Positions 9,919 through 22,745 of a stretch of 64,000 bases of DNA are shown piece after piece. The notes beneath the pieces are model-generated. The model did not search any database and was not told the DNA's origin. It saw only the letters and a program-made list of their open reading frames with translations. This stretch comes from a virus (lineage: Duplodnaviria > Caudoviricetes). Both the position numbers and the translations under genes were made by a program. How positions within the stretch are numbered: position 1 is the first letter of the stretch; every line of letters begins with the position of its first letter. Location of the stretch: IMG/VR virus record IMGVR_UViG_2531839366_000001, positions 15,127 through 79,126 of that record; one strand, 5' to 3'.

Positions 9919-9934
9919 TATGCAATATTGCATA
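9919..9934. promoter_or_regulatory. PlcR box
   Basis: TATGCAATATTGCATA matches TATGNAN4TNCATA exactly. Confidence 0.85.
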
Positions 9935-10037
9935 TTTATACGTTTAGACAAAAATTAGACCTCTATTAGTCATTCCTTAATGGTATCATAGCGAGGTGAG
10001 AGTCTTTAAGGGTTCTCCTTAATAGGAGGAAACGGAT

Positions 10038-10172
10038 ATGGAAAGAGTGCAAGCAATTATTGACAGTAATCTGAAATTCAAGAGCTGGGTTAAACAGGTA
10101 CTAGCTATAGGCGGAATATTAGGGTTCTGCTTCTTTGTGTTATATTTTTACAGTTTCTTAATTGTTATGTAA
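10038..10172 (+). CDS. 44-aa single-TM small protein
   Basis: My translation MERVQAIIDSNLKFKSWVKQVLAIGGILGFCFFVLYFYSFLIVM; RBS AGGAGG; GAGTCTT...AGGCTC hairpin downstream. Confidence 0.6.
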   Translation: MERVQAIIDSNLKFKSWVKQVLAIGGILGFCFFVLYFYSFLIVM

Positions 10173-10246
10173 ATATATACAGCTATACTAGTGGAGTCTT
10201 TCCTACAGAGGTAAGGCTCTTTTGTTGTATCTGAGGTGAATTTAAT

Positions 10247-10603
10247 ATGCCTTTCTCTACTGGTCCAATTGAAAACGTAGGAAATCAACCTACTAATGCA
10301 AATAGAGCTAGGGTTAAGATCCTCAATCGTACTGCAGGTCCACTTACTGGGGTAGTTAGATCTTTTAGACTTGACGGTACAAGAACATTAATCGAACAGA
10401 TAAACTTTAATGTGGCTGCTAATGCTTCTGAATTTATAAATCTAAGTTTAGTTCACTCTACTTTGGGACAAGCACTTCAATATGAAGTTGAAATTGTTCC
10501 TAATCAAAACGGTGGTTTATACAGTGTCTACGGAATAACACCTGGTAACGTTATTATTACTGCACAACGTGTATTGAACTCAGAATTAACGCAGATTCTT
10601 TAG
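10247..10603 (+). CDS. Bacillus STGPIEN-type small protein, probably spore/exosporium-associated
   Basis: N-terminal FSTGPIEN and C-terminal QRVLNSEL resemble B. cereus spore-surface hypothetical proteins (from memory); RBS GAGGTG. Confidence 0.55.
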   Translation: MPFSTGPIENVGNQPTNANRARVKILNRTAGPLTGVVRSFRLDGTRTLIEQINFNVAANASEFINLSLVHSTLGQALQYEVEIVPNQNGGLYSVYGITPGNVIITAQRVLNSELTQIL

Positions 10604-10893
10604 TTTTAAAAGTAAAATGGTTCAAGTCGGAGGAAGACACCTTAGGTTGTCTTTTCTTTATGAAAAATCCCCACACAATGTGCAATTTCTTAACTTGATG
10701 GTGATGTGGCGAGACCCCTGCTTGAAAACATTAGAGATATACAGAAACAAAAGCGGAAAGGTTTTTTCGGTTTGTTTTAAAGACTAATTAATTGATTAAA
10801 TGACTCTTCCAAAAAACCTTTAAATCTATTAAATAGTCTAAGCACTCTTTCATTTTTTTCATATTATATATTGAAAAAAATAATTACGAAAGG

Positions 10894-12315
10894 GTGGTCA
10901 AAATACCTCCTAAACCAAATAATAAAGAGATTCAAGTGAATAACCCTGCTCAAGATGTAGCTAATTTTCCTAGAATAACTCAAAGTGAGACTAGCCTGGC
11001 TCATTTTAAGGATTTTATCCTCTATGGATTTAATGATAGTAATAATGGCGTTGATGGGGTAGGGAATTTTAACTTTTCAGGATTTGCTTTCTCGAGGGAT
11101 TTAGGTAAACATTGGACAGATGGTGGTTCTTTACCAGTAAATCCTCTTGGAGAAAATGGCGGTGATCCTGTTATTGCAGTTGATAGAAATGGTGTATTCT
11201 ATTATGGTCAAGTTGGATTTGAAAATGTGGGAGGGGTTCCACAAGGTGTAATAAGTGTTTCGACTGGGGTAATTAATCCAAACAAAATGATAACGATGAA
11301 CCCGCCTCAGGTTGTTGGTCAGGGACAAAATCCTGTTAATAGTGTGCTAGGAAATCAAGATAAAGAATGGATTGCAGTTGGGCCAGATGCGAATAGACCG
11401 GGAAATGAGGCACTATATGTAGTCTGGACGGATTTTACTGTTGCACCAGATCCTAATATTCGCTTTTCAAAATTTAGGACAGGACAAGTATTAGCTCCCA
11501 TTATTCCAAGCAAGACAATTGTTGTAGGGGGCACTAATTTTGTTTCAGGTTCTTTTGTAGTTGTAGATAAGCAGGGTGTACTCTATGTATTTTATGAGGA
11601 AATCGCAGGAGGAAATACTGGCCGTTTAACAATCGGGGTTCCTAATAGGACAATTCAGATGATTAAATCAACTGATGGAGGGAATACTTTCTCAGCTAAG
11701 GTGCCTGTTTCAAATACTTTCGCTGCCGCTGCAACTGATACAGCAATTTGTGGGCGTCCATCTATTGGTGTTGATAACACTAGACGGATTCGTATGAATG
11801 AATTCCCTCATGCCACGATTGGACCAGATGGTACTCTCTATGCGGTATGGAATCAAGGCAGAGTGGTTGGAACTACGACCTTTATTGATGTCTTTTTAGC
11901 TTTTAGTACGGACAAGGGTAATACTTGGAACAGAGTAAATGTTACTCCTAACAATAGACCTTTTTCGTTTTTTCCTTCGGTAGCTGCTAATGCTAAAGGG
12001 GCGCATATTCAGTATAACCGCTTTAATGATCCATCAGGAGTTGGTGGAGTCGGCAATGGAACATTCGGGATATTTATGAAAACATTCTCTCGTATTACAG
12101 GTTTAAGCCCTGAAAAGATGATAAGTACTAGATTTTCTCCAGTGCCAGTTACAAATCCAAGCCCGGATACCGCAAATTGTTATATGGCTGATTACAATCA
12201 AATTATTACAGGACCCGGAAATTCCTTACTTCACTCATGGGGAGATAATCGTAATCGCTTAGATGGAAGAGATAATCCAGATGTATTCTTTAGAAAAACC
12301 GAATCAAAGCCATAA
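10894..12315 (+). CDS. BNR/Asp-box beta-propeller (sialidase-like) protein
   Basis: Asp-boxes FSRDLGKHW, KSTDGGNTF, FSTDKGNTW; GGDPVIAVD; no signal peptide. Confidence 0.8.
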   Translation: MVKIPPKPNNKEIQVNNPAQDVANFPRITQSETSLAHFKDFILYGFNDSNNGVDGVGNFNFSGFAFSRDLGKHWTDGGSLPVNPLGENGGDPVIAVDRNGVFYYGQVGFENVGGVPQGVISVSTGVINPNKMITMNPPQVVGQGQNPVNSVLGNQDKEWIAVGPDANRPGNEALYVVWTDFTVAPDPNIRFSKFRTGQVLAPIIPSKTIVVGGTNFVSGSFVVVDKQGVLYVFYEEIAGGNTGRLTIGVPNRTIQMIKSTDGGNTFSAKVPVSNTFAAAATDTAICGRPSIGVDNTRRIRMNEFPHATIGPDGTLYAVWNQGRVVGTTTFIDVFLAFSTDKGNTWNRVNVTPNNRPFSFFPSVAANAKGAHIQYNRFNDPSGVGGVGNGTFGIFMKTFSRITGLSPEKMISTRFSPVPVTNPSPDTANCYMADYNQIITGPGNSLLHSWGDNRNRLDGRDNPDVFFRKTESKP

Positions 12316-12347
12316 CCTAGTAAATTCCTCTAATAGGGGTCACCATA

Positions 12348-12438
12348 CATGCCCATCAACTTAAGAAATAGGTAATTCTCCAAAACGAAGACAATTTTCG
12401 TTTTGGGGATATTTCAAAATCTTAGCTTGATGGGCATG
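12348..12438. repeat. 91-bp imperfect palindrome (hairpin family B)
   Basis: CATGCCCATCAACTTAAGA ... CCAAAACGAA/TTCGTTTTGG ... TCTTAGCTTGATGGGCATG; related arms at 30031-30120, 10687-10706, 9583-9605. Confidence 0.75.
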
Positions 12439-12544
12439 GGATAGCAACAACAAAACGAAAATTCCGTACATTAAGCTCATTTTCAGGACGGTTTACCAAT
12501 AATCGCTATACACCAGCTTGATACAATAATATTTGGTGTGAGTT

Positions 12545-12606
12545 CAATACATATTATTAAAATTAAAGTGGTTCAAGTCGGAGGAAGGCACCTTAGGGTG
12601 TCTTTT
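12545..12606 (+). repeat. Dispersed repeat A, second full-length copy
   Basis: Near-identical to 2079-2140. Confidence 0.85.
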
Positions 12607-12683
12607 CTTAATTTTCAAAAGGACCTGCTCAATTCATGCGTACACCTGGGTTTCATCCTCTTATTAAAGGAGGAACTATTGTT

Positions 12684-12794
12684 ATGGGATATGGTGGTAG
12701 TTGCGGCGAAGGCTGCGGTTTTGCTGGAGGATTTGCTTTATTAGTTGTACTCTTTATCTTATTAATTATTATCGGATGCAGTTGCTTCTGCTAA
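12684..12794 (+). CDS. YjcZ/YhzE-family small sporulation protein, second copy (36 aa)
   Basis: My translation MGYGGSCGEGCGFAGGFALLVVLFILLIIIGCSCFC. Confidence 0.9.
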   Translation: MGYGGSCGEGCGFAGGFALLVVLFILLIIIGCSCFC

Positions 12795-12916
12795 AAAAAC
12801 TATGGGAAAAGGCACCTTAGGGTGTCTTTTTATATATATTAAAAGGCCCACCTATTTCCGTAGGTGAGCTATATGTGATTTTGCACTTGTGCACTATTAA
12901 ATTATAACAAAATTCC

Positions 12917-14743
12917 TTAATCCTCGTTAATTATATCTTGGATAATTCCAAAAACTGGACGAAAACTCTCAAAATTAACCTGATTAAACGGTTCAGCTTC
13001 ATCATAAATGTATTGAGCGAAATTATTTTTGGAAAGAGCTATATTTGTGCTATCATCAGTAATATTACAAACCCCATCATCAATAATTTGTATAGAATTT
13101 TCTCCACATTTATTTTTATTTTTGCATATTTTACTACGATCTACGCTAAGACCATATGCAGAAGAAAACTCATTTCCCATATATAGTCTTCTAAGATGTG
13201 AATCTTCTAATTTAATATCTTCATCTGTGTAGTAGTGTTCTATACAAATATTCGGGGTTGACTTTCTATGGATTGGAATTGGTAATGTAAATGAGTATAC
13301 ATTATTACCCCATTTTTTGAAATTTTCGCCATTATTTCTAGAAGCTTTATTTATTATACCTGGCTCATCTCTGTCAAATATAGCGATAATTTTCATATCA
13401 TTTTTTAATTTGGACAAAGCGGCACATAAATTTAATAAATTACTACTTCCCATATCGATTTCATCTTCAAATTTATAGAATTCAAAATTATTTTCAGTCA
13501 TTTGTCCAACTGTTTGAAATTTATTTAAAGCAGCACTTAAATGTTTCCAGTCCGTTTTACCTTCAGTGATAACTAAATGTTTAGGTACATTTTTAATTTT
13601 TTCTTGTAAAAAATTAATATCAAATGCTTCTTTAATAACTTGTTCCTCTGTCCAGTTAAAGAATTCCCCTTGATCAGGTATGATAACTTCTCCAGTAGGA
13701 GTTCTTTTTAAAACTAATACTTTATCATTCAATCGACTATCATTATGAATAACAAAAGGAGAATGCGTTGCAAAAAATAATTGTGATGTTTGAAATCCTT
13801 CACTATTTTTGAATAGGTTTTTATAAAAATCAAGGATTTTTAATTGCCATTTAGGGTGAAGGCTAATCTCAGGTTCATCTATAAATACAACTGAACCTTC
13901 TGTTGCAAGTTTATTTCTTAATAAAAAGCTTCCTCTAAAAACAATTTGTTTTTCTCCAGAGCTTAAATCATTTATCGTAATTTCTTTTCCAAACTCTTCA
14001 AATAAAATAAGCTTCCCATTTGCTGTATTTACTACTTTTTTATATTTCTTATTCGGAAAAATACTTTCAAACGCATTTTTAAATCTTTTCATACGTATAT
14101 CTCTTATACCATCAGATACTTGAGCTGTAGGATTTCCGTCAGCCCATTGTGCAAAATCTCCGTTATCTAAAGATTCGATATCGACTAATAATTGAGTAAT
14201 CTCTTGAGCAAGATTTCCTGAAGACTTAATTACATTGCCATGAGGCATATCAATATCTAACGATGTAGTATAACCTATTGCCGTTGGTGTATAATTAACA
14301 TCTACATCAGAGAAAATACTTTGAAAAAGGTTAGTTTCAATTAAAATATAGACCCCAAAATAAATATTAGATGGTTCATCAACGCTTAAAATATACGGTT
14401 GTGTAGCATCTGAAGAACCCGCTTTAGAATAATCCACTGTTATTTTTAATTCGTCACCTAATTTATAACCAAACATTCTTGATTGAAAGGATTGATCTGC
14501 CCACAATAATTGTAAATCTTTTTGAGAAAGTTTGAAAATAAATTCAGCTTTTCCATTTGATTTTTTTTGTGGAATTGGAGAACTAAAAAAATCAAATATA
14601 ATATTTAATAACGTTGATTTTCCAGTTCCATTTTCTCCAGCTAGAATGATAGTTTCAAATGGTTGTCCATCCTCATCACAAAAATTAAATTCCAAATCCT
14701 TATAAATTTCATGATCAAAAAACTTTAAAGATTTAATATACAT
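12917..14743 (-). CDS. OLD-family ABC-type ATPase fused to TOPRIM nuclease (608 aa)
   Basis: Start reassigned to MYIKSLKF after RBS GGGGGTG; Walker A GENGTGKS, signature LSSGEKQ, Walker B FIDEPEISLHP, ATHSP; TOPRIM ITEGKTD and FDRD. Confidence 0.9.
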   Translation of the reverse strand: MYIKSLKFFDHEIYKDLEFNFCDEDGQPFETIILAGENGTGKSTLLNIIFDFFSSPIPQKKSNGKAEFIFKLSQKDLQLLWADQSFQSRMFGYKLGDELKITVDYSKAGSSDATQPYILSVDEPSNIYFGVYILIETNLFQSIFSDVDVNYTPTAIGYTTSLDIDMPHGNVIKSSGNLAQEITQLLVDIESLDNGDFAQWADGNPTAQVSDGIRDIRMKRFKNAFESIFPNKKYKKVVNTANGKLILFEEFGKEITINDLSSGEKQIVFRGSFLLRNKLATEGSVVFIDEPEISLHPKWQLKILDFYKNLFKNSEGFQTSQLFFATHSPFVIHNDSRLNDKVLVLKRTPTGEVIIPDQGEFFNWTEEQVIKEAFDINFLQEKIKNVPKHLVITEGKTDWKHLSAALNKFQTVGQMTENNFEFYKFEDEIDMGSSNLLNLCAALSKLKNDMKIIAIFDRDEPGIINKASRNNGENFKKWGNNVYSFTLPIPIHRKSTPNICIEHYYTDEDIKLEDSHLRRLYMGNEFSSAYGLSVDRSKICKNKNKCGENSIQIIDDGVCNITDDSTNIALSKNNFAQYIYDEAEPFNQVNFESFRPVFGIIQDIINED

Positions 14744-14989
14744 AAGCTCCACCCCCCTTAAATATTCAAAAAACCATAGATATCTATAATAATAACAAAG
14801 ATAGATAAACAATCAGACAATAAATTTCACGTACTATATCCGATATGTAAACCAAAATTTCGAAATAAAGCATATTCTAACCATCCATCTCCTTATTCTC
14901 TAACTCAGTCAGTTATAATTCCCCTATTTATTCCTCTATCTTAGCTAGTAGTATTTCAGATTAGTATTAAACCCTGTATTTTTCATCTT

Positions 14990-15590
14990 TTCTTCATGCT
15001 TATACTTGACTAAAGGTCTTGAGGGTTTTTATCATGTGGGAACGATTAAGGAACACGGCTGGAAGGCAGATTTATCCCCTACTTTGAAAGATCACAGAAA
15101 AAGTAATCGTTCAAAATAGATGGATAAGCGTCTTTGTTTTCGCCATGCGGTCACTTATAAGGTATCCGTATGTATAGACCCTGTTCACTCAGCGATCTTC
15201 ATCGCATACATCCTTTTTCTATGGCTTGTCCTTGTAATATCGTCCCTACACGACAAACTGAATGTACTCCCTAGCACCGTAATGCTAACGATAACCTCCC
15301 GAACCTTTTAGAGACTCGTCCCTAGGCAAGTTCTCGCCTACCCTCACCAGATGAACAGGAATCCAATGAGGGGCGCTGTTTTTGTAGGCGTATACTCTGT
15401 ACCCCCTGCACGACCAACAGCAAGCCACGCCGTAACACGTTCCCGCTAAATGTATGCAGCACGGAATCACGGCTTATCAGTTTTTAATTACGTGGTATCA
15501 GGCAATTCCACGCGAACAAAAAACAAAAAGGCATCTCCAATTCCTAAATGACCTGTACATTCACAAGACTTCTAGGTTTAGAAATGCCCG
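14990..15590 (-). ncRNA. Long, GC-richer, structured non-coding segment (candidate RNA or Rep-less origin)
   Basis: About 600 nt with no credible ORF, many hairpins, visibly higher GC than its flanks; TTGATT-N18-TATATA promoter-like site at 15592-15621 on the minus strand. Confidence 0.4.
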
Positions 15591-15637
15591 TTATATATCT
15601 TTTGGACTACAAAATAATCAAAACTAGTATTTACTAG

Positions 15638-15666
15638 TTGATATTTATCCAAACAATAGATAAAAT
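15638..15666 (+). promoter_or_regulatory. Sigma-A promoter, back-to-back with a minus-strand promoter across the palindrome AACTAGTATTTACTAGTT (15622-15639)
   Basis: TTGATA-N17-TAAAAT. Confidence 0.65.
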
Positions 15667-15671
15667 GGGTA

Positions 15672-15847
15672 TATCAAAGAAGCCTCGTGAAAAGGCATAG
15701 TTGTTTAAGAATAGTGTTGGTGCACTACTTAAACGTTAATACTGTGGTTGAATACAGTTCGTTTCTAGCCAAGTGGTGGTACACTAGCTAGAAGAGTCAT
15801 TCCCGCTAAAGGTTGGTAGCCGTTAGCATATGGGAGTGGCTTTTTTA
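15672..15847 (+). ncRNA. Candidate ~175-nt multi-hairpin small RNA
   Basis: Follows the promoter; consecutive stems GCCT/AGGC, GTTTAAG/CTTAAAC, ACTGT/ACAGT, TCTAGC/GCTAGA and a terminal GTCATTCCC...GGGAGTGGC-T6 terminator. Confidence 0.55.
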
Positions 15848-16017
15848 TTTTCTGTTCATATTCAATTGTTCTATCGATCTTCGTTTATGTAAAATATCAA
15901 ATTATGTTTTGTTTTGTAGAATGTTGCTTGTTGTGTACTACGTTACAACAAGCTTTTTTGTTTGTAAATGCCTCTATAAGCTTACAATATACCACTCTAC
16001 ATAAAATTCGAATTTCA

Positions 16018-16312
16018 TTTTTATACTTTTATAATTTTATACTTTTATAAAAAACTAGTTTTTCAATAACAGAATGATAGATTTTTTATACTTTTATAAT
16101 TTTATAAAAGTATAAAAGTATATTTTTATAAAAAATATACTGATAAAGCCTGATAATACAACATTTTGAAAATAGGTTTTAAAAACTATCATCTATTTAC
16201 AGTTTAACTTTAAACTTTTTATAAAAGTATAAAATTATAAATTTATACTTTACCGTTGGTTTGTTGTGTTATAAAATCAAATTATAAATTTATAAAAGTA
16301 TAAAAAAACTTT
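16018..16312. repeat. parS/centromere-like array of TTTATA(C/A)T-type repeats upstream of parA
   Basis: Clusters such as TTATACTTTTATAATTTTATACTTTTATAAAA in direct and inverted orientation. Confidence 0.8.
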
Positions 16313-16331
16313 TTTTACGAGGTGACGGAAA

Positions 16332-17159
16332 ATGTGCAAAGTTATCACAACTGGGAACTTCAAAGGCGGGGTCGGAAAGACTACCAATGCTGTAATGTTA
16401 GCTTATACATTCGCGAAACAAGGAAAGAAAACTTTATTAGTAGATTTAGATCCACAAGCGAATGCGACTGATTTACTATTCAACACAATGAAAAAAGTCT
16501 ATTCGATTGAACCCGAATTCAAAAGAACATTAGCTATGTCTCTTATAGATGCAAACTTACAAAGTGCACTAATTAATGTGCTACCTAACTTAGACTTACT
16601 TCCTTCTTACGAGGATTTACAAACATATGAGAAGTTCCTATTCAGAAATTTTGAGGATGACTTCTCGCAAGATACTTATTTCGCAAAACAGTTAAGTTCA
16701 ATCAAAGAAAATTATGATTACATTTTTATTGATGTGCCACCACAATTAAATAAATTTGCAGACAGCGCATTAGTCGCTAGTGACTATGTTATGGTTATTT
16801 TACAAACACAAGAAAGATCATTAAAAGGTGCTCAGAAATACGTTGAACATGTATTTTCGTTAGCAGATGATTACAATTTACCTTTAGAAATTATTGGGGC
16901 ATTACCTGTACTAATGCAAAACGGGAATGAAATAGACAAAGATATTCTTCAAGAAGCCGAAGAGATTTTTGGTAAAGCCAATGTATTCAGTAATATCATT
17001 AAACAGATGGCACGTTTAAAGAGATTTGATAGAACGGGAATCACTTATAATCTGAAAGATGTTCATGATAAAAACGTTCATACTGTATACCAAAATATCG
17101 CAGGTGAAGTTGAAAAAAGAATCGAGATTTTGGAAGGAATGACAACAGTAAATGGATAA
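16332..17159 (+). CDS. parA: ParA/Soj partition ATPase (type Ib)
   Basis: Deviant Walker A NFKGGVGKTT, LVDLDPQANAT, YDYIFIDVPP; no N-terminal HTH. Confidence 0.95.
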   Translation: MCKVITTGNFKGGVGKTTNAVMLAYTFAKQGKKTLLVDLDPQANATDLLFNTMKKVYSIEPEFKRTLAMSLIDANLQSALINVLPNLDLLPSYEDLQTYEKFLFRNFEDDFSQDTYFAKQLSSIKENYDYIFIDVPPQLNKFADSALVASDYVMVILQTQERSLKGAQKYVEHVFSLADDYNLPLEIIGALPVLMQNGNEIDKDILQEAEEIFGKANVFSNIIKQMARLKRFDRTGITYNLKDVHDKNVHTVYQNIAGEVEKRIEILEGMTTVNG

Positions 17160-17511
17160 CAAATTGAATATAGACAAAGAACAACTTGGTATGAGAAGAA
17201 AGAAAACTGAAGGATCAGTAACCTTTACGCCTGAAAGTAAAGAAAATCAAGAACGTAGTTTTCCTGACGATGAGAAGCTCTTTGAAAAACCTAAGAGAAA
17301 ACTTACTACAAAAGAGTTACCAAAATCTTTCCGTGTTTCATTAGAAACACACACAGCAATATCAACACTTGCTACAATTGAAGATATGAAAATTTATGAA
17401 GTAATAAATATGTTAATTGAAGAAAAAGTTGCTTCGTTACCTACACCGAAACAAAAGTTAGTAAAAAACGCTGTAAAACAAGTACTTGAATCGAAGAAAA
17501 GTCGAGAATAG
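17152..17511 (+). CDS. Small centromere-binding partner (RHH-like)
   Basis: Overlaps the parA stop; unstructured N-terminus then KSFRVSLETHTAISTL...IYEVINMLI. Confidence 0.7.
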   Translation: MDNKLNIDKEQLGMRRKKTEGSVTFTPESKENQERSFPDDEKLFEKPKRKLTTKELPKSFRVSLETHTAISTLATIEDMKIYEVINMLIEEKVASLPTPKQKLVKNAVKQVLESKKSRE

Positions 17512-20980: not shown

Positions 20981-21589
20981 CTATATTTTCGTTGCAAGAC
21001 TATCCATGAAATTGTTAATTGAAGAAGCTTGGAAGATACGTAAATTAGAAGAATTAATATCGTACTGCTTATCAGTAATAATGAGGATTGATGGGAAGAA
21101 TTTAGATCCTTTCGGCTGCCACGATTCGTTATGCCATTCCTGACTGTGGAAATATAACTCATACCTGTTTATTTTATCTTGCATAATCTTTTTACTGTAA
21201 ACAGACTTCTGAACCTCAATGAAGAATGGAGATCTATTCCAAATGGCAAATGCATCTGGTTCCATATAGTCTCTACCGTATTTCGGTTCGACTTTATATA
21301 GTTTCGGCTTTTCATAATGGATAAGCTGTTTATATACGTCTACAATACCGAGGAAGTGGGGAATCTTCTGGCTAGTTTTGCGAAGTGTGCTAGGTTGAGG
21401 GAAATATATAAATGGCTGTTGCGAGATATTGGCATCCACATGACCGTCTCTTCTTAATCGTTTCATCACGGTATTACAGCAAGTAACCGCGTTATTTAAT
21501 CCTTGAAAATGCAAGTCGATAATGTCATCACGGGACATACACCTAAAACGTTTCAGATTACTTAGAATCGCTTTATCTCTATTCCTCAT
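20981..21589 (-). CDS. Replication-relaxation family protein
   Basis: MRNRDKAIL wHTH N-terminus, KIPHFL, MEPDAF...FFIEVQ; coupled to FtsK. Confidence 0.8.
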   Translation of the reverse strand: MRNRDKAILSNLKRFRCMSRDDIIDLHFQGLNNAVTCCNTVMKRLRRDGHVDANISQQPFIYFPQPSTLRKTSQKIPHFLGIVDVYKQLIHYEKPKLYKVEPKYGRDYMEPDAFAIWNRSPFFIEVQKSVYSKKIMQDKINRYELYFHSQEWHNESWQPKGSKFFPSILIITDKQYDINSSNLRIFQASSINNFMDSLATKI

Positions 21590-22745
21590 CGTCTAACACC
21601 CCAAACAACGGAATCTCTTCTTGTGAATGATTCTGAAGCGTCATATCCTCTTTTGGTATGCGATAAGTTTCAACAATCTGTTTCGCCTTACTTAATTCTA
21701 AAAATGGAGCTTGCACTTTCTTTAATCCATTTAGTTTTAGAATCATTTGGCCCGATTGCTCCAAGTGTTCTGAACCAGGTGTACCCATGATATTACTGTT
21801 AATCGTACTATCACATTTAAATCCCATTCTAACTGTCATATTAAGCTTTAATTTGCCATCTAATACTTTTGCATCAGGACGTTGCATGGAAAGCATGAGG
21901 AACACTCCGAGTGCCCTACCGACTGCCGATATCTTTTCAACTGTAGACATACATTCTTTTTCATTTTGCAACATGGCTACTTCATCAATAGCGAGTAAGA
22001 TATATGGTTTCTGATTATCAGGATTCAATTTATTGTATTCGTCAATATGGTCCACTTCATGCTCTTCCATGAGTTTTCTGCGCTCTCTGATTTCCTTCCA
22101 CACTTTCTGAAGCATTATCTTCATTTCGATTTCTTCCATACAAACCTCTTTTACGTGTTTTACCCTTCGTAAAAAATGAAATTCGGAATTCTTCAAGTCG
22201 CCCAGGTACAAGTGTAATTTTTCAGGAGACATGTATTGAATGAGTGTGGACAGAACAACGCGTACCATACTACTTTTTCCACTTCCTGTTTCTCCTGCAA
22301 TTAATAAATGTGGTGTATTTGAATCAACCATGTCATACGTAATCATGTTTCCGAATTGGTCCCGACCCACCACAACAGGAAGACGATACTTTTTCAATAG
22401 TGGCTGCCATTTCTTATAACTGTAATTGTATGGTTGTAGTCCTGCATCCGAATGAAATACATTAAGTACAAACTTTTTAATATCACCTTCAATTGCTACG
22501 TTACGTCCTAATATTTGTTGAAAGCAAAACCATTTCTTTTCAATGGTCTTCGGATCTAAACCATTTGGAATGGTAAATATATATTTAACACTTTCTTGTG
22601 TGGAGGAAACATCATGTATCTTAGGATAAATCGGTACTTTTCCCCCTCTTGTTTGATGATCCACATATAAACCTGCTTTTCCAAATACCTCTATAAGCTG
22701 ATTCTTCAAATTTTGTTTATGAAGCCATTCTTTGATGAGTCCCAT
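21579..22745 (-). CDS. FtsK/SpoIIIE-family ATPase
   Basis: PHLLIAGETGSGKS, LAIDEVA, GRALGVFLMLSMQRPDA. Confidence 0.92.
   Translation of the reverse strand: MGLIKEWLHKQNLKNQLIEVFGKAGLYVDHQTRGGKVPIYPKIHDVSSTQESVKYIFTIPNGLDPKTIEKKWFCFQQILGRNVAIEGDIKKFVLNVFHSDAGLQPYNYSYKKWQPLLKKYRLPVVVGRDQFGNMITYDMVDSNTPHLLIAGETGSGKSSMVRVVLSTLIQYMSPEKLHLYLGDLKNSEFHFLRRVKHVKEVCMEEIEMKIMLQKVWKEIRERRKLMEEHEVDHIDEYNKLNPDNQKPYILLAIDEVAMLQNEKECMSTVEKISAVGRALGVFLMLSMQRPDAKVLDGKLKLNMTVRMGFKCDSTINSNIMGTPGSEHLEQSGQMILKLNGLKKVQAPFLELSKAKQIVETYRIPKEDMTLQNHSQEEIPLFGVLDDEE

Follow-up and report, generated by a model that had tools for sequence, protein, structure and literature searches.

How does a phage that persists as a plasmid replicate when no rep gene lies beside its parA? 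The question is raised by a 64,000-nucleotide stretch of DNA (hereafter the window), bases 15127-79126 of IMG/VR record IMGVR_UViG_2531839366_000001, which is 79,126 bp long and rated complete by CheckV. The element is a phage-plasmid, because it combines parA and an upstream iteron array with phage-type genes and a resolvase-like gene, and because its close relatives are ~50-kb plasmids of the Bacillus cereus group such as pBFH_1 (strain G9241), pE33L54 and the 52.8-kb plasmid of KBAB4. The first of these has been described as an extrachromosomal prophage, or phagemid, from which virions are released (PMC10196113). By analogy with the annotated relative pBT1850055, we take the large minus-strand open reading frames (ORFs) that lie in series at 31.8-52 kb to be phage structural genes. 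An initial annotation, made from the sequence alone, proposed that a gene-free segment beside parA is a Rep-less, RNA-based replicon. Comparative evidence supports this proposal, as the segment is the only feature common to the phage-plasmids (~50-80 kb) and six small plasmids. We consider it probable that 14895-15905 is the replicon of the plasmid state, a variant of the ori1030 type that would work through a structured RNA under antisense control; pBFH_1 carries the same segment, in support of this reading.

The intergenic gap runs from a 631-residue ATPase gene to parA (14813-16331), and its conserved, ORF-free part (14895-15905) is called the block here. The absence of a credible ORF beside parA was borne out. 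The longest ORFs within the gap encode 57-63 residues and none is conserved: among 67 non-redundant homologues, each short ORF of the block is intact in at most 23, and most homologues have frame-breaking indels in these ORFs. Hidden short genes were rejected because the ORFs are not kept among the homologues. G+C content is 0.44-0.51 at 15200-15600 and 0.26-0.33 in the flanks.

The block is widely conserved, at 88-94% in more than 100 B. cereus-group plasmids. By blastn, 14822-15969 is matched at 88-91% identity in PLSDB plasmids (244 records), with 92-95% identity over 14990-15640. parA adjoins the block in all 244, and the gene on the left side differs between plasmids. Hosts among the matches listed are the B. 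cereus group and a few Peribacillus, Planococcus, Pseudalkalibacillus and Sutcliffiella. Across 57 phage-plasmid copies, column identity to the window is 0.87-0.99 over 15020-15440. A covariance model built from the core of this region (R1) matches 32 of 105 related species-representative genomes of the family, and 102 IMG/VR contigs match a 17-mer from the core. A 17-mer scan of genome contigs was discarded, as it gave mostly chance matches.

The G+C-richer, hairpin-rich segment that the initial annotation had placed on the minus strand is a real structured RNA of ~530 nt, because it shows covariation together with a strand-specific fold and strand-specific G.U pairs. We aligned 63 homologues from 15600 to 15000 on the minus strand and folded them with RNAalifold. 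The consensus fold (-108.4 kcal/mol) has 119 pairs, 36 of which have changes on both sides. The reverse complement of the same alignment gave -50.2 kcal/mol, 80 pairs and 19 double changes, so that the minus strand folds about twice as well. In a separate pair count, 99.3% of cells were paired. The 36 double-change pairs compare with 8.8 +/- 2.2 in shuffled alignments (0 of 500 shuffles reached 36) and with 5-9 when partners were slid by 1-3 columns. The window's own sequence at 15036-15592 behaves in the same way, with folding z-scores of -5.1 (minus strand) and -1.9 (plus strand). Furthermore, the helix 15341-52/15361-72 is an unbroken 12-bp stem on the minus strand only, and three of its positions are G.U in the window and A-U or C-G in a small-plasmid type.

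Other origins and other readings of this RNA were tried and rejected. Rfam searches over 14700-16400, at gathering scores and at E up to 10, gave no credible match. A group II intron, retron or insertion sequence (IS)-associated RNA was dismissed on this result and because the block has no linked reverse transcriptase or TnpB. The plus-strand promoter TTGACT-18-TATCAT (15006-15035) was discarded as a start for the long RNA, since its -10 hexamer is not conserved in the diverged copies L008, L009 and L010; the structure and the G.U pairs also place the long RNA on the minus strand.

Read from its 3' end, the RNA is divided into segments that differ in conservation (Table 1). The 3' tail is kept in all 63 aligned sequences, with 75-95% identity even between variants that reside in the same strain. 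This A-rich tail is a candidate RNA-to-DNA transition site or origin. Upstream of the core, the variable hairpin insertion falls in alignment gaps in L006, L007, L009, L076 and L056 and is only 11% identical between co-resident variants. The hairpin that precedes it in the transcript (15479-15529) is the most conserved bin across all types (0.76), and a profile built without the type of plasmid BTB_15p nevertheless found it there. Next, in every type, comes a long, stable hairpin with a U-rich tract after it (15592-15515). Its stems covary between types (GGCAU/AUGCC, GGGCGU/ACGCCC and GGGCAUUAUC/GAUAAUGCCC), and the arrangement resembles an intrinsic terminator or attenuator that separates the leader from the core.

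Copies and relatives of the core were also seen on chromosomes. Full-length copies lie on chromosome-sized contigs of 5.2-5.3 Mb (G058:C1:1446666-1447030 and G035:C1:5226243-5226597) and are presumably integrated phage-plasmids or co-integrates. In addition, part of the core (R1 positions 88-359, E 8.7e-16) has a single-copy chromosomal relative of ~260 nt. It was located at L248 1056-1289 (-), which is G007:C1:1164255-1164488, as well as at G005:C1:8573-8835 and G041:C8:96612-96881. The element is 90-92% conserved between B. cereus-group species, has no Rfam match, and lies directly 3' of a DUF520 (YajQ-like) gene, between an RNPP-type regulator and cvfB.

On the opposite strand, the initial annotation had noted a multi-hairpin transcript that ends in a terminator, and the prediction of such a small RNA (sRNA) gains from comparison. 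Its promoter P2 keeps both hexamers and their spacing in every type. The sRNA body is the least conserved part of the block between types (0.21-0.44), and its stem-loops persist with changed sequence in diverged types. The terminator is conserved, and its stem has G.U pairs in 118 cells when read as plus-strand RNA and in 0 when read as the other strand. Of a palindrome that overlaps the -35 element of P2, every type keeps the right half (TACTAGTTGA), and only some keep the left half.

Two further claims about this region did not hold. A DnaA-box-like 9-mer, TTATCCAAA, is present at 15645 but lies within the P2 spacer and is not conserved: the sequence, one mismatch from a DnaA box, occurs in 34 of 67 homologues and in 0 of the small-plasmid types. 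The annotation had also described back-to-back sigma-A-like promoters that transcribe divergent RNAs. The plus-strand member, P2, is found in all types; its minus-strand partner at 15621-15593 is weak. We rejected the latter as a start for the long RNA, with ~8/12 matches by hand count and no listing by the promoter scan, and it is not conserved in the small-plasmid types L007, L008 and L009. A better candidate, P3, lies just right of the sRNA terminator. It reads TTGATT-17/18-TAAAAT, a good match, in L007, L008 and L010, and TTGATA-17-TAGATT in L001 and L198 (phage-plasmids of the L001 type), and the motif GAACGGA / ACAAT after it is conserved in all types. Judged by this alignment, the long RNA more likely starts near 15865-15880, to the right of the sRNA. 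Because the start is placed at P3, the sRNA would be antisense to the first ~190 nt of the long RNA, and the term divergent is probably wrong; the position of P3 and the unconserved promoter at 15621-15593 make a sense/antisense overlap more likely.

What this block might do can be asked of its small carriers. Diverged copies, at 69-85% identity or detectable only by profile, occupy long non-coding gaps in L006 (6,868 bp), L007 (7,523 bp), L008 (7,300 bp), L232 (7,631 bp), L233 (10,816 bp) and L234 (7,380 bp), and another lies on a 16-kb Peribacillus plasmid. MOB-suite assigned no replicon type to the six Bacillus small plasmids (6.9-10.8 kb), and the proteins scanned from four of them (L006, L007, L008 and L233) showed no Rep domain. 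Besides one L008 protein, the scanned ORFs of L006 and L008 have helix-turn-helix (HTH) and resolvase domains only. When ORFs were clustered across eight block carriers, a serine recombinase (resolvase) was the one widely shared protein family, and the genes flanking the block fell into unrelated families, none with a homologue in the present element. In the window, no plasmid-type initiator was found among the ORFs scanned, and none is annotated on pBT1850055. Because no rep gene was found, the flanks are unrelated and only a recombinase is shared, the block appears from these comparisons to be the only common replicon candidate of the phage-plasmids and the Rep-less small plasmids. With no conserved ORF inside it and variable genes around it, the block is not linked to an initiator, as in the ori1030 type. 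Its role as a replicon is further suggested by the 7-kb plasmids, which have nine small genes, lack a rep gene and yet need a replicon.

We propose the following scheme, in which both ends of the transcripts, attenuation by the antisense RNA, priming and the act of replication are all inferred. P3, right of 15865, would drive a minus-strand RNA whose ~190-nt leader is fully complementary to the sRNA made from P2 (15673-15850). After the leader, the polymerase would meet the terminator-like hairpin and U-tract (15592-15515). Transcripts that read through would enter the ~470-nt structured, G+C-rich domain (15510-15040) and finish in the conserved A-rich box (15036-15005), where the RNA might give host enzymes a primer for leading-strand synthesis or might open the DNA for such synthesis. 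Pairing of the sRNA with the leader would favour termination and so set copy number and incompatibility. A 13-bp alternative pairing can form in the window type (-18.6 kcal/mol vs -11.6 for shuffles): it joins the 5' arm of the hairpin to the segment of the leader that is complementary to the 5' stem of the sRNA. Our hypothesis is that this represents the logic of countertranscript-driven attenuation.

Strains that carry two block-bearing plasmids are of interest here. B. cereus GUCC 3 has a 55.9-kb phage-plasmid (L254, NZ_CP137770) and the 6.9-kb L006 (NZ_CP137771), both with the block. Identity between the two is 70% in the core and only 28% in the sRNA body, a pattern as expected if the sRNA-leader pair sets incompatibility. 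Other apparent co-resident pairs, judged solely by adjacent accession numbers or a shared strain name, are NZ_CP053995/NZ_CP053996, NZ_CP009603/NZ_CP009604 and NC_018502/NC_018489 of HD-771. Some blocks are also mosaic. L204 and L150 have small-plasmid-type segments inside an otherwise phage-plasmid-type core, and L006 joins a window-type core to a BTB_15p-type sRNA region; because of these mosaics, the sequences point to recombination between replicon types.

Several observations weigh against an RNA-based replicon and should be considered together with the alternatives. In the window itself P3 is weaker (TTTACA-17-AACAAT at 15893-15865, 9/12). The leader/attenuator pairing is moderate across types (median z = -2.2) and absent in L008 and L234. 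The link to ori1030 passes through BTB_15p of Bt407, which, from its size, host serotype and Tn4430, is probably pHT1030 or a near copy. It passes as well through a ~1-kb ORF-free region of pHT1030 that reportedly (Lereclus and Arantes 1992, Mol Microbiol 6:35) suffices for replication. In addition, the central core of BTB_15p (~400-520 nt) is not alignable to that of the window and is missed by R1. Finally, proteins that might act as initiators do exist. The initial annotation had allowed for a rep gene elsewhere on the element, and this was found in part: the record encodes a Phage_rep_org_N protein (E 7e-51) and an IstB/DnaC-like ATPase (L005 3361-4975), though in an early lytic-type module. 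Beside the block of BTB_15p lies a 346-residue ORF (L010 101-1141, +) that matches PDB 4PTA, of RepA_N type, at E 5e-5, and a 164-residue HTH_36/DnaD_N-like gene adjoins the block of L008.

These proteins are arguments for regarding the block as a DNA origin for a protein initiator, either the phage replisome organiser or unrecognised small winged-helix proteins of the small plasmids, with the RNAs confined to regulating that origin or to activating it through transcription. The replisome organiser and loader could serve an origin in trans, and two weak ~20-nt repeats at 14895-14955 might be part of one. We nevertheless regard a protein-dependent origin, the main rival, as unlikely. On the record, ~25 kb separates the replisome-organiser pair from the block, and the pair lies 10-12 kb outside the window. 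With its neighbours, a Sak single-strand annealing protein and an antirepressor, it makes up the early lytic-type replication module usual in temperate siphoviruses. No flanking protein is common to the carriers: the genes on the left belong to at least four unrelated families with no homologue in the element, no initiator-like domain was found in the scanned ORFs of L006, and L232 has no annotated gene of more than 200 residues. The 346-residue ORF of BTB_15p has a weak Pfam match to RepA_N/HTH_36, is missing from L232 (7.6 kb, same block type), and could represent a second replicon or else the stability gene spbA. Moreover, a ~470-nt domain with 36 covarying pairs far exceeds the needs of an origin regulator.

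The large non-coding RNA of the block could also have some other role (lysogeny control, partition, or interference directed at the host or at other phages), with replication left to an unrecognised module. Phages commonly have large structured RNAs of unknown function, and the single-copy chromosomal relative of the core by the DUF520 gene cannot be a plasmid origin. Such a role seems quite improbable to us, given that the block is the sole element shared by 7-kb plasmids that have nine small genes, lack a rep gene and must have some replicon, that it stands next to par, the usual position of a replicon, and that homology links its control region to non-coding DNA of the presumed pHT1030. It is also conceivable that the long RNA is a 5' leader or cis-regulator for the left-hand minus-strand gene or for the par operon, given that the block lies upstream of the 631-residue ATPase gene and adjoins parA. 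This explanation is largely refuted by the variable neighbours, and we give it very little credence: the left gene varies between plasmids, yet the end point of the block is constant, and the block is divergent from parA, with a terminator and the iteron array between them.

Returning to the antisense-controlled, RNA-based replicon, a bolder reading casts the ~470-nt core as an "RNA initiator" that substitutes for a Rep protein and so represents a new class among the large functional RNAs of bacteria; we offer this tentatively, as a possibility that we would not yet favour. The tertiary-folded core would itself make and position the primer or R-loop at the conserved A-rich box and would bring in the host replisome, and attenuation driven by the antisense RNA would set copy number. 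If true, ori1030-type plasmids would share the class with many Bacillus phage-plasmids, and the B. cereus chromosome would carry a diverged, single-copy relative.

The protein-independent theta replicons ori1030 and oripLS20 have been in Bacillus vectors for 30 years. The mechanism of such replicons is still called unknown (PMC8557374). A covarying RNA of ~0.5 kb with an antisense partner would offer them a concrete, testable mechanism, and the large structured RNA defined here is not listed in Rfam. If the proposed replicon is real, it would explain how widespread, integrase-poor prophages of the B. cereus group persist as plasmids, including pBFH_1 of the anthrax-like G9241. It predicts that the sRNA sequence determines incompatibility between these plasmids, and it could provide a compact replicon for vector design.

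Table 1. Features of the block and its surroundings (window coordinates; a dot marks features without strand).
Feature	Position	Strand	Description and basis
ABC-type ATPase gene, left of block	12917-14812	-	631 aa; AAA_21/AAA_15
Left arm of block	14895-14955	.	two imperfect ~20-nt direct repeats (CTCTA..CT.AG..AGT..TA); MAFFT alignment, all types
Conserved 3' tail of long RNA	15005-15060	-	ends CAUGAUAAAAACC.UCAAGACC...AGUCAAG (15036 to 15005)
Core of large RNA	15061-15424	-	~364 nt, ~94 base pairs, 7 branch points; RNAalifold, pair counts, model R1
Variable hairpin insertion	15425-15478	-	in phage-plasmid type, missing from most small-plasmid types
Conserved hairpin	15479-15529	-	GUGGAAUUGCCUG.A.ACCAC, U-rich tract before it (15529 to 15515); two covarying pairs
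Long imperfect hairpin, terminator/attenuator-like	15530-15592	-	between leader and core; -28 kcal/mol alone
Palindrome over -35 of P2	15621-15640	.	AACTAGTA-ttt-ACTAGTT; read directly
P2, sigma-A-type sRNA promoter	15638-15666	+	TTGATA-17-TAAAAT; 10/12
sRNA (predicted)	15673-15850	+	~178 nt, three or four stem-loops and intrinsic terminator (15795-15850); -61.6 kcal/mol
P3, candidate long-RNA promoter	15865-15905	-	just right of sRNA terminator; promoter scan and alignment
Terminator between block and parA	15926-15962		
Partition centromere	16018-16318	.	TTATAAAAGTATAA-type iteron array, both orientations
parA	16332-17159	+	275 aa; Pfam AAA_31 6e-43 and CbiA
Small gene 3' of parA	16332-17511 (with parA)	+	119 aa, no Pfam match

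At the left arm, conservation is 0.68-0.72 within phage-plasmids and ~0.5 in small-plasmid types. Its repeats are weak, as a repeat finder at seed 7 did not return them; the arm is possibly a protein- or primosome-loading site. Cumulative GC skew was tried for placing an origin and set aside as uninformative, since gene orientation dominates it. To the right, the 119-residue product encoded downstream of parA is the presumed centromere-binding partner.

Left of the block lies a variable cargo island (window 2576-14812, continuing upstream of the window at L005 10237-13726). The part within the window encodes the 631-residue ABC-type ATPase, two tandem DndB-like proteins and an IS3-type transposase, and the upstream part an AAA ATPase followed by a subtilase; the cargo genes are likely defence genes. 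A 64-bp element at the left edge of the block (14823-14886) is 81-86% identical to several phages (IEBH, 250, PfNC7401, PfIS075, vB_BceS_LY4 and 0105phi7-2) and may mark the edge of a hot spot for cargo insertion. Elsewhere, at 20981-22745 (-), an FtsK/SpoIIIE-domain ATPase is paired with a Replic_Relax (PF13814) protein, as it is in the annotation of related phage-plasmids such as pBT1850055 and of a 30-kb conjugative plasmid that bears a BTB_15p-type block. A group II intron RNA was detected at 57642-58418 (-), with Rfam matches to group-II-D1D4-5 (115 bits) and Intron_gpII domain V/VI (56 bits). As the two matches are only ~780 nt apart and enclose no ORF of at least 90 residues, the intron seems too short for an intron-encoded protein.

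How does the block compare with replicons that are already known? The attenuation systems of pT181, pIP501 and pAMbeta1 share with it an antisense RNA complementary to a leader that is followed by a terminator-like hairpin. They differ in what comes after the attenuator, which here is a structured non-coding RNA and not a rep ORF, and the Rfam ctRNA_pT181 match reaches 22 bits against a gathering score of 56. ColE1-type plasmids (class B theta, with RNA II and RNA I) also lack an initiator protein. As in those plasmids, a long structured RNA would end at a conserved box, and the opposite strand would yield a small multi-hairpin RNA whose terminator abuts the presumed start of the long RNA. An antisense to the 5' end of the pre-primer, as in ColE1, would exist here only with P3 as the start of the long RNA. 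Neither the sequence nor Rfam gave any sign of a relationship (RNAI/ColE1 families, E up to 10), and the present system has a Gram-positive host, a terminator-like hairpin between leader and core, and a far more elaborate core. ColE1-type priming is proposed here by analogy.

The pLS20 replicon of B. subtilis (oripLS20, class E theta) was reportedly studied earlier by Meijer et al. in 1995. It resembles the block in being a ~1.1-kb module without a typical rep gene beside a partition module. oripLS20 is limited to Bacillus, with a mechanism called unknown, and its relatives all have DnaA boxes at similar positions (Val-Calvo et al. 2021, PMC8557374). Its replication is reported to be independent of DNA polymerase I (PMC9743546). 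The DnaA boxes of oripLS20 are conserved, whereas the lone DnaA-like 9-mer found here occurs in about half of the homologues.

The closest likeness is to ori1030, on which the pHT304/315/370 and pBS0E vectors are based. ori1030 serves as a replicative origin in Bacillus vectors (PMC5678133), and we found no description of its RNA anatomy in the literature. Our comparison was made with the presumed pHT1030, BTB_15p (L010), a 15,189-bp plasmid with Tn4430, IS231A and a 1.3-kb non-coding region. This region aligns to window 15506-15862 (E 6e-18), and the hairpin/GUGGAA region matches it at E 1.6e-15 in the profile search described above. The two share the sRNA promoter, the sRNA architecture and terminator, the hairpin with its U-tract, the GUGGAA hairpin and the left boundary box. 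BTB_15p likewise has a ~520-nt G+C-rich stretch that folds on the equivalent strand (z = -4.4 vs -0.1 on the other). The present module differs in its setting, a 79-kb phage-plasmid in which it stands beside parA.

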